64,000 nt of DNA from a virus. Within the stretch, counting starts at the first letter, position 1; each line of letters starts with the position of its first letter. The DNA lies in IMG/VR virus record IMGVR_UViG_3300043429_000130, positions 32,001 through 96,000 of that record. One strand, given 5' to 3'. The position numbers and the translations under genes were made by a program. This document shows positions 46,791-50,752 of this stretch, piece after piece. Below the pieces are notes generated by a model. It was not told the DNA's origin and ran no database searches. It saw only the letters and a list, made by a program, of their open reading frames with translations.

Positions 46791-48983
46791 CTATTTCATA
46801 TTTTTAAAGGGGTTACGGTGTCCTTTAGAACCGAGTGTACTACCTTTAGAGCCACCGATATGTCTAAAGGGGCTCCAATTTAATTTACTAAATTTCTGGG
46901 AGTTATCCAAGTTTTCTTTTGTAACTTCTACACGTTTAGTCAGTCCTCTGTTACTTTGTTGGACCTTTGCAAAGGCTATAAGGGCACAAAATGCTACTAA
47001 CCTATCCACGTTTAGTCCATCTCTGTAAGCTTGCATTTCACGTAGAAGCATAATATCTGGTATACGTTCTGCTCCGTATATTGTTTTTACAATGTCTCCG
47101 TTCTCTTTAGTCTCATGATCAAGCTCTTCTTTTAAGAATTCAATCCCATAAGACAACACTGTACCCTTGAATAGTGTACCCACGTTCTTCCATCCATATT
47201 CTTGGAATACGTTACGGTTGGCACCAATGTCTTTTAAGAACAAGATCATATCTTTTGGTACAAGATATCTCTGCTTTTTCTTGCTTATCATATACTGAAT
47301 GAATAAAGCTACGTTATTTTCTACAACGGTCCAAGCATTATACCATTCTATAAGAAGCTCTAGACGTTCATGGGTTTTGTTAAGATCATCAAAACGTCCA
47401 CACCATGATGCTACAATCATGTCACGTTCTATCTCGTTTTTAACCCTACCGTTACCGTCATCTTTAATAACCTCCACTGGATTCTTATATACGTATATAG
47501 AACATAGTGATTCAGATGTAGTGGTCTTTCCTTCTCCAACAGGGTCCACAGAAGCATAGTACATCCCAAATGGTGGATCTTTATGAGGTCTTTCGTAGAT
47601 ACAGATCACTCCCTCTTTGTCTTCAGTCTTTTTAGATATAGGAAACTCCATGATAGGAATCTTTCTAGATGGTTTGTCTACTATCTTACCCTCAGCATTT
47701 CTAGAAAGCTCTAAGTATTCTACAGAATATTCTTTATCCTGAATACGTTGCATCTGTTTAGCAACCAAGTGTGGAGGGAACACACTCACTTTACGGGTAG
47801 CAAAAGCTTCTTCAATACAACGTGGTTGCTGAGATACAGTAAGTTGATAAGCTGCCGGGTCTAAATCCCTTTTCATCTTCTCAAATTCTTTCTCTAGAGC
47901 CTCTAAAGCTTCCTCCACCTTAGAGTTGCCCCACTGATCAATATAAGGGGGCATAGACCACTGTTCTGGAATAAATAGACCAGTTATACCAATTGTTCCG
48001 TCCTTGTCTACAAGGCTACTTTCTACCCCATAGAAGCCATTCTCTTCTGGGTGTAGGATATATTCCTTCATTGGCTCACACTGATCTAGATCACCGACTG
48101 ATCCAGCTGCAATAAACTGACCAGTGATCATGTGACCAGACTTAAGTGCTGGCTTCATAAATCCATACGTGTCATCCATCTTAGGTGCGATACCTGCTTC
48201 CTCATGAAAGAAGTATGTTACAGGTCCACCGACACCATGTGTAGGGTCTTTTTCAAAGGAGTATAGGTTGATCGTGGATTTCAAACCTTTATACGTGTCA
48301 CGACCACCTATCCTCACCTTAATCTGTTGCTGCCATGCCCCAACCTTGTCAGGCTCAGCTGGACGATACCAGGCTGTGTGTTCATTTAAGAAGTTCTTAT
48401 ATTCATTAAGAAACTTCCATGAGCCTTTCTCGTTTATATAATCTTTTAAAGAAGCCCCTATCTTTAATACAGCTCCTTCTTCAAACCAATATTGGTTGAT
48501 AAGCTTAGCCATATGGAAATAAGAAGAGGCTATCTGACGCTTCTTTAGAATAATAGCGTGTTTCCAGTGTAGTTCAGCTAAATGCTCATATAGAGCCATG
48601 TGATATTGTGCATCCCTCACCTTAGCAAAGTCAAACCTTTTCTCTTCTTTGTCATAAATAGGTAAGAAGTTCAACCACATATAGTAGTCTCTGCTTATAT
48701 ACCACTTTTCATCACCGTCTTTTACAATGATTCCATTACGGCATTTTGCTTTTTGGTCATTCCAGTAGGCAATAAAGTCTTTTGTCTTTACAGGAGCTGC
48801 ACAATAATATCCTTGTTTTTGAAACTTACGACCTTCTTCATTAAAGATCTTACTAGTTTCATTAAAGTTATACTTACCAGGCTCTTTAAAAATAAACAAC
48901 AAGAAGTCTCTAAACTCTTCTCTTGTATAGAAGGTGGTTACGTCCCATTGACCATTCTCGTATGTAGGTATTTCTCTAAACAT
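46791..48983 (-). CDS. terL: Terminase large subunit
   Basis: Walker A-like LKKRQIASS, Walker B FFHEEAG, nuclease YASVDP and C-terminal NVDRL. Confidence 0.9.
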   Translation of the reverse strand: MFREIPTYENGQWDVTTFYTREEFRDFLLFIFKEPGKYNFNETSKIFNEEGRKFQKQGYYCAAPVKTKDFIAYWNDQKAKCRNGIIVKDGDEKWYISRDYYMWLNFLPIYDKEEKRFDFAKVRDAQYHMALYEHLAELHWKHAIILKKRQIASSYFHMAKLINQYWFEEGAVLKIGASLKDYINEKGSWKFLNEYKNFLNEHTAWYRPAEPDKVGAWQQQIKVRIGGRDTYKGLKSTINLYSFEKDPTHGVGGPVTYFFHEEAGIAPKMDDTYGFMKPALKSGHMITGQFIAAGSVGDLDQCEPMKEYILHPEENGFYGVESSLVDKDGTIGITGLFIPEQWSMPPYIDQWGNSKVEEALEALEKEFEKMKRDLDPAAYQLTVSQQPRCIEEAFATRKVSVFPPHLVAKQMQRIQDKEYSVEYLELSRNAEGKIVDKPSRKIPIMEFPISKKTEDKEGVICIYERPHKDPPFGMYYASVDPVGEGKTTTSESLCSIYVYKNPVEVIKDDGNGRVKNEIERDMIVASWCGRFDDLNKTHERLELLIEWYNAWTVVENNVALFIQYMISKKKQRYLVPKDMILFLKDIGANRNVFQEYGWKNVGTLFKGTVLSYGIEFLKEELDHETKENGDIVKTIYGAERIPDIMLLREMQAYRDGLNVDRLVAFCALIAFAKVQQSNRGLTKRVEVTKENLDNSQKFSKLNWSPFRHIGGSKGSTLGSKGHRNPFKNMK

Positions 48984-49273: not shown

Positions 49274-49297
49274 AATATTTTTATTTAATAATTTAGG

Positions 49298-49400
49298 AAA
49301 GCAGAAGATGGGTGCGTGGACATCTGCTTTTACAACTGGCATTTCTAACCGATCACGTACGGCCCTTTCTACAGTTAAAAGTACGTTATTCCAGTCAACC
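49298..49400 (-). ncRNA. Pseudoknotted structured RNA directly downstream of the tRNA-like gene
   Basis: Helices GACTGG/CCAGTT and ACGTAC/GTACGT, a crossing helix TTTTAACTG/CGGTTAGAA, then an AAAGCAGA/TCTGCTTT hairpin. Confidence 0.5.
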
Positions 49401-49405
49401 TTTTG

Positions 49406-49575
49406 CTGTAGAGGGTGGACTCGAACCACCAAGGTGAGATTCAATTGATAACACAACGCTTGCAAGCTGGTGGTCTACCCCATATTATCAATCTATTTCT
49501 GCATCACCGCCCACGAGACAGGTGGGTACGTTTGCCAAGGCCATAACTGAGACAGCCAAATTTCGTCACTCTACA
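49406..49575 (-). tRNA. Atypical 170-nt tRNA-like RNA, anticodon GUC (Asp), with D-loop insert and giant variable arm
   Basis: Acceptor TGTAGAG/CTCTACA plus G73, T-arm GGTGG-TTCGAGT-CCACC, anticodon arm CCCAC-CTGTCTC-GTGGG. No encoded CCA. Confidence 0.7.
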
Positions 49576-49581
49576 ATTTTA

Positions 49582-50232
49582 CTACTTGTTATACTCATAT
49601 TCTAGTATCTTACCAACAATATCACTACGATGGTTTTCTTTTAGTTTGATCCACTTAATCTCACTAATCTTTTTAGATAGTTCAATAGCATAAGTCAAAC
49701 CTGTAACACTATGTTTAGTGTCTTGTTGTTCATTATCACCGTTAATAATAATCTTACCTGTTTTACCAAGTCTAGTTAGAATAGCCAGCATCTCAGTTTT
49801 AGTGAGGTTTTGTGCTTCTTCTACAACTAAGATATCATCTATAGTTTTACCACGGATAAACTGTACAGGATAAGCAATGATCTTCTCATCTTTTACCATA
49901 GACTGAATCTTCACTTTGTCTGCACACTTTACTAGATTCTCCTGAAAAGCTTCTAGATAAGGATTAAACTTCTCATCTAGAGATCCTGGGAGGAATCCTA
50001 AAGAGCTACCTACCTCTATAGTGGCACGTGTTACAAATATTTGGTCACACTGCTTCTTATTTAGGAAATCTAGTGCACTTAATGCACATACTAAAGATTT
50101 ACCACTACCAGCTCTACCTGTAACTATTACAATCTGGTTTTCAATAATTAAACGTCTAGCTTCTCTCTGTTCATCATTAAGAGTTACATGATATTTAATT
50201 TCTTGTTTACGTTCTCTGTTTGGCTCTCTCAT
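49582..50232 (-). CDS. phoH: PhoH-like ATPase
   Basis: GRAGSGKS Walker A, LGFLPG, RGKT, VEEAQN, LTRLG, GD..QQD and HRS motifs. Start is probably the ATG at 50232. Confidence 0.9.
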   Translation of the reverse strand: MREPNRERKQEIKYHVTLNDEQREARRLIIENQIVIVTGRAGSGKSLVCALSALDFLNKKQCDQIFVTRATIEVGSSLGFLPGSLDEKFNPYLEAFQENLVKCADKVKIQSMVKDEKIIAYPVQFIRGKTIDDILVVEEAQNLTKTEMLAILTRLGKTGKIIINGDNEQQDTKHSVTGLTYAIELSKKISEIKWIKLKENHRSDIVGKILEYEYNK

Positions 50233-50239
50233 GTTTTTA

Positions 50240-50752
50240 CTATTGGTCATACGCTAAGTTTTGTCCTCCTCTAACTTGAGACTGTTGTTCTTCCATTAAG
50301 TCTCTGTACACTCCCTTAAAACTTTGTCTAACAGAGTCAAATCTTTCTGCAATTCTAAGGATGGCTGTAGCAGATCCGTCTCTGCCAGATGTCACTTTTT
50401 CTGTAGCCATAAAGCCGGCCATGTTATCTAGTGCAATCTTAATACCCTGGTATGCTCTATATGTAGGAGTTTCGTACATTTTCTTACACATACGTAATCC
50501 ATTTATTACAAGATCATCTTCTGTAGAAAAATCACCGTCCACTTCTGCTAGAATGATATCTTCTTTATCTGTTTCAGGAACATCAAAGAAAGGATTTAAA
50601 TCTGGGTTAGGACATGTCATGTAGAATAAGTAAGAATACACCTTAGTAGATTCATCACCATACTCATCCATAATATCTTTTAAAAACTTTAAGGTGTAAC
50701 AGTGTTCACTAGGAACCACCTTACCATTAGCTATATCAAATAATCTTACCAT
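50240..50752 (-). CDS. Conserved phage protein (terminase small subunit candidate)
   Basis: 170 aa helical protein upstream of terL; function inferred from position only. Confidence 0.45.
   Translation of the reverse strand: MVRLFDIANGKVVPSEHCYTLKFLKDIMDEYGDESTKVYSYLFYMTCPNPDLNPFFDVPETDKEDIILAEVDGDFSTEDDLVINGLRMCKKMYETPTYRAYQGIKIALDNMAGFMATEKVTSGRDGSATAILRIAERFDSVRQSFKGVYRDLMEEQQSQVRGGQNLAYDQ

Follow-up and report, generated by a model that had tools for sequence, protein, structure and literature searches.

A family of large tRNA-like RNAs with an aspartate-type loop in Bacteroidota chromosomes and phages, possibly acting off the ribosome

The list of tRNA-shaped RNAs that act off the ribosome is short, and includes the non-proteinogenic tRNA-Gly of Staphylococcus aureus, described as near-normal tRNAs of 75 nucleotides (nt) that are charged by the normal synthetase, kept from translation and used in cell-wall synthesis (PMC7826273). 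Further points of comparison are offered by: 1) the allo-tRNAs and selC-like tRNAs of bacteria and phages, reported to be non-canonical, with a long variable arm, G73, 8/4 or 9/3 acceptor/T arrangements, varied anticodons and possibly non-standard decoding (PMC5389517, PMC7609411); 2) the tRNA-Asn served by the route of aspartyl-tRNA synthetase (AspRS) and GatCAB (PMC4206432); and 3) phage tRNAs reported to counter host defences, which have a changed anticodon-loop position and are kept when other tRNAs are lost (PMC10264068, PMC11464382). Here we describe a 170-nt, tRNA-shaped gene on the minus strand (positions 49406-49575) of a 64,000-nt stretch of viral DNA, hereafter the window, which comprises positions 32001-96000 of the 119,642-bp IMG/VR record IMGVR_UViG_3300043429_000130. 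It belongs to a family that resides both in Bacteroidota chromosomes and in phages probably infecting Bacteroidota. We propose, with a probability of about 0.5, that from their sequence these RNAs are non-decoding tRNA mimics, recognized and probably aspartylated by AspRS, which take part in Asp/Asn aminoacyl-tRNA metabolism and have been captured by phages.

With bacterial tRNA-Asp(GUC) the family shares G34, U35, C36, C38, G73, G2-C71, a 7/5 cloverleaf and a canonical T-loop; however, it has a class II long arm in place of the 4-5-nt variable loop, U1-A72 in place of G1-C72, a pyrimidine at position 37, a variable position 33 and a Leu-like D-arm, and ordinary tRNA-Asp coexists with it in phage arrays. 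Class II tRNA-Leu has the same 3-bp D-stem, a loop (GAAAT..GG.A.AC) which in the phages' own tRNA-Leu is close to that of the family, and the same variable-arm geometry. Yet the family carries G73 rather than A73 in 70 of 70 distinct members, G73 being described as an antideterminant for the leucyl enzyme LeuRS (PMC9976931), and combines it with an Asp-type loop and an arm of 25 to ~120 nt with conserved motifs. Resemblance to the tRNA-Asn of the AspRS/GatCAB route lies in U1-A72 and G73, as well as in the enzymes of the carriers, which encode GatB and mostly both GlnRS and AsnRS; the family differs from it in having GUC rather than GUU, a huge variable arm and an apparently non-decoding nature. 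The proposed likeness to the S. aureus tRNA-Gly is that of a tRNA-shaped aminoacyl carrier loaded by a normal synthetase and withheld from translation, although the family has large structured expansions that set it apart from those near-normal molecules. Unlike the allo-tRNAs as reported, its members have a 7/5 architecture, in which both stems covary, and a fixed GUCUC loop. In contrast to the phage counter-defence tRNAs, it has homologues in host chromosomes, and no link to a defence system was found.

On the minus strand of the window we could locate all the parts that a preliminary description had listed, namely the acceptor stem, G73, the T arm, the anticodon arm with GUC at 49519-49517, U37 and a variable region of 79 nt. 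The element is organized as follows:

49406-49575, minus strand: whole tRNA-like gene, with T1 at 49575 and G73 at 49406, after which comes C (49405).
49569-49575, minus strand: 5' strand of the acceptor stem, TGTAGAG; U1, G2 and U3 are conserved family-wide, and pairs 5:68 and 6:67 covary.
49407-49413, minus strand: 3' strand of the acceptor stem, CTCTACA, forming a perfect 7 bp with TGTAGAG and followed by G73.
49528-49566, minus strand: D arm, with a 3-bp stem (ACG/CGT) in which pair 10:25 covaries between A-U and G-C, and a Leu-like loop AAATT...GGCAAA that houses an insert.
49538-49558, minus strand: D-loop insert hairpin of 21 nt, with a 5-bp stem (2 of 5 pairs changed on both sides) and the loop GTCTCAGTTAT, holding a second TGTCTC.
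49510-49526, minus strand: anticodon-like arm CCCAC-CTGTCTC-GTGGG, with G34, U35 and C36 at 49519-49517, then U37 and C38.
49431-49509, minus strand: variable arm of 79 nt, made of P1, an internal loop and P2.
49504-49508 and 49433-49437, minus strand: variable-arm helix P1, 2 of 5 pairs changed on both sides.
49494-49503 and 49438-49442, minus strand: variable-arm internal loop.
49482-49493 and 49443-49454, minus strand: variable-arm helix P2, 7 of 12 pairs changed on both sides.
49469-49481, minus strand: invariant, apparently unpaired motif GGGGTAGACCACC between P2 and P3, with the family core GACCAC; it contains GAC, the complement of GUC.
49458-49467, minus strand: P3 hairpin GCT-TGCA-AGC, 1 of 3 pairs changed on both sides.
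49414-49430, minus strand: T arm GGTGG-TTCGAGT-CCACC, with a canonical T-loop and 2 of 5 pairs changed on both sides.

The element has U8 and G9, a 7/5 cloverleaf with canonical D- and T-loop nucleotides, a class II (Leu-like) scaffold and covarying expansions. Its earlier characterization as a chimera holds, in that an Asp-type loop and G73 are set on a Leu-like class II body whose D-arm and variable-arm geometry match those of the phages' own tRNA-Leu genes. Removal of the 22-nt D-loop insert, which does carry a second TGTCTC, leaves exactly the D-arm ACGAAATTGGCAAACGT that occurs naturally in 30 insert-less viral loci. As for the two small hairpins formerly placed in the variable arm, the one with CTTGCAA corresponds to P3, whereas the one with GGTAGA lies in the invariant, apparently unpaired motif; a GGT/ACC mini-hairpin within this motif was rejected because its positions are all invariant in type A members and unpaired in type B members. 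P3 is a perfect 10-nt palindrome in all three of its sequence variants (GCTTGCAAGC, GCCGGCCGGC and TCCGGCCGGA), which would permit RNA dimerisation or mirror a site at the DNA level.

Folding of the single sequence recovers the cloverleaf with a stability no better than that of shuffled sequences (z = -0.82), and the case for significance must therefore be comparative. We tested an explicit structure on an alignment (A1) of the 42 distinct viral members that share the arm type of the window's copy. In this alignment 99.1% of the cells pair, as against a shuffled mean of 90.6%; 18 of 47 pairs are changed on both sides, as against 0-3 when the partners are slid; and the covariation score is reached by none of 500 shuffles. 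The acceptor helix contributes 2 of 7 such pairs, the D stem 1 of 3 and the anticodon stem 1 of 5. An alignment of the bacterial copies described below, which was fitted to the model, gave 89.8% paired cells and 21 of 47 double-changed pairs (slid controls 4-9), again with a score reached by 0 of 500 shuffles. Taking the two alignments together, every helix shows compensatory changes, those of both expansions included. Given that the helices of the D-insert and of the variable arm covary, both expansions are, on the evidence of the alignments, selected structures and not products of decay.

Standard scans pass over this RNA, as had been anticipated for ARAGORN: the program reported no tRNA anywhere in the genome, the window included, and made no call on the bacterial copies. 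Only the 94-95-nt viral relatives (9 loci) were called, as tRNA-Asp(GTC). Relaxing ARAGORN to allow introns produced only noise: the genome then received 245 calls, and the models proposed for the element made no sense. Searches of Rfam 15 with the window gave no match at gathering thresholds and nothing relevant at E-values up to 10, and the 16 bacterial loci likewise gave none; a 401-nt BLASTN query had no match among 50,697 phage records. As neither Rfam nor the literature yielded a description of such a tRNA-like RNA family, it is apparently undescribed so far, and the result shows that standard tRNA and RNA-family scans can overlook structured RNAs 110-210 nt in length.

The exact 25-nt 3' end of the element occurs in 27 viral contigs, in all of which the 5' acceptor strand lies 160-170 nt upstream. 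Scanning viral contigs with a pattern for the D-stem and anticodon arm returned 94 stretches, and the same pattern with the loop left open returned 99, the five extra ones being three chance matches in coding sequence and two true members (loops CCGTCTC and CGGTCTC). In all, 97 viral members were parsed (96 besides that of the window), which amount to 51 different sequences with lengths of 94-177 nt; an additional locus, L036, is recognizable as a member but was left unparsed. The shortest members, of 94-95 nt, are plain class II cloverleaves, and the larger ones have modules added in the D-loop and variable arm. The D-loop is either free of inserts or carries a hairpin of one of at least four unrelated kinds; variable arms measure 25 to 93 nt. 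Twelve phage loci also hold an ordinary class I tRNA-Asp, with G1-C72 and the loop CTGTCAC; the element is therefore an extra Asp-type gene and not the phages' tRNA-Asp. A scan for other oversized tRNA-like genes in the 97 viral loci and the window's genome revealed a single 106-nt candidate (L017:10073-10178, plus strand): it has a Leu-like D-arm, a T arm and an acceptor of 7 bp but lacks a clear anticodon arm, and ARAGORN made no call on it.

A covariance model built from A1 (R1) recognizes the element as its sole match in the window (199 bits). Beyond the viral contigs, R1 recovered full-length matches in two Bacteroidota genomes reached by chance; in a sample of 151 genomes taken from the same phylum, that of Flavihumibacter solisilvae (G001), 14 gave such matches. 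A second model (R2), derived from 19 bacterial copies, found members of at least 82 bits and at least 109 nt in 15 of the 151 genomes, with ordinary class II tRNAs scoring at most 58 bits. In total there are 19 bacterial copies in 16 Bacteroidota genomes, 15 of which belong to the sample (~10%). These matches overturned the notion of a phage-only family; a fixed-pattern scan of contigs, which had returned 105 stretches, none of them tRNA-like, was too strict and amounts to a false negative. The bacterial copies stand as genes of their own, are 109-212 nt long, have variable arms of up to ~120 nt with conserved non-tRNA motifs, are sometimes found two in tandem, and in several cases are directly followed by a terminator-like hairpin. 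They have in common with the phage copies the core, G73 followed by C, and the plan of the arm, namely P1, the internal loop, P2 and the GACCAC motif. Of the 70 distinct members, 61, from phages and bacteria alike, have the GACCAC core, which recurs in arms that are otherwise different.

The only recurrent neighbour in 15-kb bacterial regions is an immediately adjacent, divergently oriented gene for a protein of ~155 residues, seen in 11 of the 16 genomes (with two short contigs added), a twelfth copy lying at a contig end. This protein is a regulator of the Lrp/AsnC family, whose best NCBIfam match is AsnC (152-170 bits; next families 50-86 bits). In E. coli, asnC is divergent from asnA, the gene that it regulates. 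Other genes next to the bacterial copies are unrelated housekeeping genes (SufB, PanC/PanD, LysRS and TrmB), which indicates that these are chromosomal loci and not prophages.

The conservation of individual bases, counted over 70 distinct members (51 phage and 19 bacterial), separates two sets of positions. In decoding tRNAs U33 and a purine at position 37 are near-universal. In the family all 70 of 70 members have a pyrimidine (U or C) at 37, which is U in the window's copy. U33, which this copy has, is found in 64 of 70, the others having C (4) or G (2), and bacterial members show U or C at position 32. By contrast, U35, C36, C38 and G73 are each present in 70 of 70 members, G34 in 68 (U in two bacterial copies), and U1-A72 and G2-C71 in 69 of 70 each. 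The GUCUC of the anticodon-like loop as such occurs in 51 of 51 phage members and is nearly fixed in the 19 bacterial ones, and the base after G73 is C throughout (97 of 97 phage loci, 19 of 19 bacterial copies). The strong aspartate determinants named by Giegé and Eriani (PMC9976931) number five, and are G34, U35, C36, C38 and G73. As this set is fixed whereas U33 and a purine at 37 are not kept, we read the pattern as selection for recognition by AspRS rather than for decoding. This agrees with the earlier suspicion that the RNA probably does not decode normally. A possible role of the loop as a TGT (UGU-loop) substrate was dropped, U33 not being conserved.

These features suggest how the RNA might work. 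Its maturation would be tRNA-like, with a 5' cut by RNase P and, C74 being encoded, completion of CCA by the host. Because the fixed bases coincide with the aspartate identity set, host AspRS would be expected to recognize and probably aspartylate it; because position 37 is always a pyrimidine, U33 is dispensable and the variable arm is very large, it would work off the ribosome. Its likely field of action is the Asp/Asn branch of aminoacyl-tRNA metabolism, that of GatCAB, as suggested by the conserved U1-A72 and by the adjacent AsnC-like gene. The module of internal loop, P2 and GACCAC motif in the variable arm may be a functional add-on with a putative partner of its own, and the phage copy would be an RNA gene taken from a host and reliant on the enzymes of the host.

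Several observations weigh against this interpretation. The G1-C72 pair is described as crucial for bacterial aspartate identity and as strictly conserved in bacterial tRNA-Asp (PMC9976931), and charging of the family, with its U1-A72, by AspRS may hence be poor. The frequency of U33 and the tRNA-Asp calls of ARAGORN on the shortest members (9 loci) leave decoding by the short forms possible, and the invariance of the loop in phages is partly built into the search patterns, the open-loop pattern and the covariance-model matches being the independent tests of it. AspRS approaches its tRNA from the side of the variable loop, with which the long arm could clash. Some determinants of serine identity, too, are present, namely G73, G2-C71, R4-Y69 (A4-U69 in the window's copy), a large arm and, in the phage copies, C11-G24, which leaves charging by SerRS conceivable. 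The scores of the adjacent regulator fall below the NCBIfam AsnC equivalog cut-off of 227 bits. GatB is found in 15 of 15 sampled carriers of the RNA and is common anyway (126 of 151 genomes overall), and carriers are not depleted in an AsnB-type synthetase (14 of 16, as against 8 of 15 non-carriers, at E-value limits of 1e-10 and 1e-40 respectively), so that they show no gap in asparagine synthesis. Contigs of the Logan assemblies from three of four RNA libraries fall on the element: X15 has an exact 152-nt contig (49420-49571), X16 has contigs at 49429-49578 and X18 one at 49416-49536. Contigs of this kind cannot establish transcription, strand, ends or level, and DNA may be present in the libraries; they lend weak support to the element being transcribed.

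If the proposal of an AspRS-recognized, off-ribosome RNA is correct, it would add a new and widespread class to the known RNAs of this sort. The class has a clear sequence signature, occurs in ~10% of the sampled Bacteroidota, has been repeatedly captured by phages and has a conserved regulator as its neighbour; its function is therefore directly testable in culturable bacteria. It would further imply that the only "tRNA" of a phage need not serve codon supply, and would provide an entry point into how Bacteroidota, which are poor in textbook regulatory RNAs, link aminoacyl-tRNA metabolism to amino-acid regulation.

Among the alternatives, we would consider unlikely, though the most probable of them, a regulatory tRNA mimic that stays uncharged and either titrates AspRS, GatCAB or another tRNA-binding protein, or reports Asp/Asn status to the adjacent Lrp/AsnC-type circuit. 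The loop and arm motifs are conserved in the manner of protein-recognition sites, in 11 of 16 genomes the RNA is divergent from a gene of a regulator family that responds to amino acids, and its patchy presence in ~10% of genomes is typical of accessory regulators. The strict retention of the acceptor end (U1-A72, G2-C71, G73 and C74) is, however, most easily explained by use of the 3' end.

A working decoder, that is, an unusual class II tRNA-Asp for GAY codons, for instance an altered substitute resistant to an attack on host tRNAs, is somewhat less probable again. It would account for the GUC anticodon, G73, the canonical tertiary nucleotides, the 7/5 architecture, the U33 of most members, the placement of some members in tRNA arrays and the calling of the 94-95-nt forms as tRNA-Asp(GTC). 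It is difficult to reconcile with the universal pyrimidine at 37, the C33 or G33 of 6 of 70 members and the change of G34 to U in two bacterial copies. Moreover, an ordinary tRNA-Asp stands alongside in 12 loci, U1-A72 takes the place of the G1-C72 of bacterial tRNA-Asp, and the bacterial variable arms, extending to ~120 nt, carry conserved non-tRNA motifs.

The connection with GatCAB admits a more specific model, which we hold as a doubtful, minority hypothesis: the family would be a dedicated, ribosome-excluded carrier for the making of asparagine, captured by low-GC, Asn-rich phages to raise their asparagine supply. Ordinary (discriminating) AspRS would load aspartate by way of the Asp-type loop, and GatCAB would amidate it to asparagine on the U1-A72 end. 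The pyrimidine at 37 and the huge arm would keep the resulting Asn-RNA(GUC) off EF-Tu and the ribosome, the GAC triplet of the arm might pair in cis with the GUC loop, and the AsnC-like regulator would control the gene as asnC controls asnA in E. coli. GatCAB and related amidotransferases are reported to rely on U1-A72 (PMC9976931, PMC4206432), a feature of Asp-tRNA-Asn-type substrates that the family shares, and the retention of GatCAB beside GlnRS and AsnRS has been argued to serve tRNA-dependent asparagine synthesis (Alperstein et al., PMC4206432). Among the carriers tested, AsnRS is present in 5 of 5 and GlnRS in 4 of 5, and AsnA in none of 15 (4 of 151 overall). Nevertheless, the model has minority status because carriers are not depleted in an AsnB-type synthetase, and its "metabolic gap" version is unsupported, AsnA being rare overall and an AsnB-type enzyme being found in all but two carriers. 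The ordinary tRNA-Asn has U1-A72 in four of five carriers and G1-C72 in the fifth, G073. This possibly incomplete genome (L219, L235 and L287) encodes GlnRS, AsnRS and GatB with no match for AsnA or AsnB, and the tRNA-like RNA is the only Asp-type RNA with U1-A72 found there. G073 is one suggestive genome for the asparagine lead.

Improbable to a greater degree is a function suggested in the preliminary description, a phage decoy or sponge that presents two anticodon-like loops to a host anticodon nuclease targeting tRNA-Asp-type loops. Phage tRNAs have been proposed or shown to counter tRNA-targeting defences (PMC10264068, PMC11464382, PMC11555353), the element is the only tRNA-like gene of its phage, and in one phage subgroup the second TGTCTC loop sits in a covarying hairpin. 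This idea is weakened by the homologues in 16 Bacteroidota chromosomes, which have the loop and arm motifs of the phage copies and lie among housekeeping genes, usually (11 genomes) beside the AsnC-like regulator; given these homologues the RNA is not a phage invention. Nor is the pair of anticodon-like loops a trait of the family, the TGTCTC-bearing D-loop hairpin being confined to that subgroup, with other members having a different insert (L048 has a different loop in its D-loop hairpin) or none. That position 37 differs from ordinary tRNA-Asp in every member would be odd for a mimic, and no defence gene or system was found linked to the element in the analyses made.

The combination of a class II body with G73 could also describe a missense tRNA charged by SerRS, which would put serine at aspartate codons in the manner of an allo-tRNA. 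The serine set of bacteria is given as G73, C72, G2-C71, R4-Y69, C11-G24, a large variable region and G30-C40 (PMC9976931). Part of it is found in the family, yet A72 replaces C72, A30-U40 replaces G30-C40, and 15 of the 19 bacterial copies have U11-A24 in place of C11-G24. The geometry of the arm (1 nt on its 5' side and 2 nt on its 3' side) fits the tRNA-Leu of these phages and not their tRNA-Ser, and an invariant anticodon loop is left unexplained where serine identity is described as anticodon-independent (PMC9976931); we regard this option as very improbable. Finally, a decayed or interrupted tRNA gene, whether a pseudogene or one with removable inserts, would explain why standard tRNA finders miss the element and can practically be dismissed, as compensatory changes affect every helix and both inserts and the RNA is kept across 97 viral loci and 16 bacterial genomes. 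The related suggestion of a precursor from which the inserts are removed is unlikely, these being structured and under selection. Readings of the inserts as archaeal-type removable introns, and of the arm as a hammerhead or K-turn, had no Rfam support, and they face the covariation of the inserts.

Turning to the phage loci, about 60 of the 97 share one layout, with genes in the order 170-residue protein (59 loci), PhoH (only 18 loci), the element, ~111-residue protein (60 loci) and large terminase (61 loci). The PhoH-like gene of the window (49582-50250, minus strand) is an insertion relative to most relatives (18 loci, as against ~60 sharing the flanking genes), and its adjacency to the element is probably incidental. 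In tRNA-rich relatives the element lies within tRNA arrays: tRNA-Cys is 4-9 nt away in 17 loci, tRNA-Ser(GCU) 5 nt away from a family member in 4, and tRNA-Ser(UGA)/tRNA-Ile(GAU) 5-6 nt away in 5. Related phages with the same element and the downstream module described below have 10 to 24 tRNAs within the fetched loci, and some syntenic relatives (17 loci) retain only the element and tRNA-Cys(GCA). The phage of the window has no ordinary tRNA, the element being the only tRNA-like gene kept. Its large terminase (46791-48983, minus strand), which has no Pfam match, shares only ~25% of its residues with its counterparts in crAss-like, Flavobacterium, Cellulophaga and Bacteroides phages, and these relatives suggest a host in Bacteroidota. 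DNA runs with at least half of the sampled words are labelled as freshwater, lake, sediment or crustacean metagenomes; the phage belongs to a remote lineage from fresh water. Among the phage proteins encoded nearby, Pfam recognized just PhoH, a PD-(D/E)XK nuclease and, weakly, an HU-like protein; no AspRS-class enzyme, GatB or AsnC-like gene is encoded among the phage genes, and a simple promoter and terminator scan gave nothing above shuffles.

One of the contigs of library X16 (contig 4, 49429-49578; 206 nt) goes back 150 nt: in it the 3' end of an element of the CACTACAG variant is followed by CC and then by the element's 5' start. The join could stem from tandem copies, from a circular or permuted RNA, or from an assembly artefact. 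No viral locus showed more than one copy (one pattern match per locus), and adjacent tandem copies occur in three bacterial genomes (G001, G041 and G137). No RNA contig covers the PhoH end (49586-49700), an absence that carries no evidential weight. Between the element and the next open reading frame we noted a second conserved module (49295-49401, minus strand) that ends in the hairpin AAAAGCAGATG...CATCTTCTGCTTT. Counterparts of this module, 83-100% identical to it, occur in 63 viral loci, in some phages at 0.4-5 kb from the element. It is covered, with a high word depth, by contigs of X16, X17 and X18, which diverge on either side; it may be a small RNA or a leader of the terminase operon.

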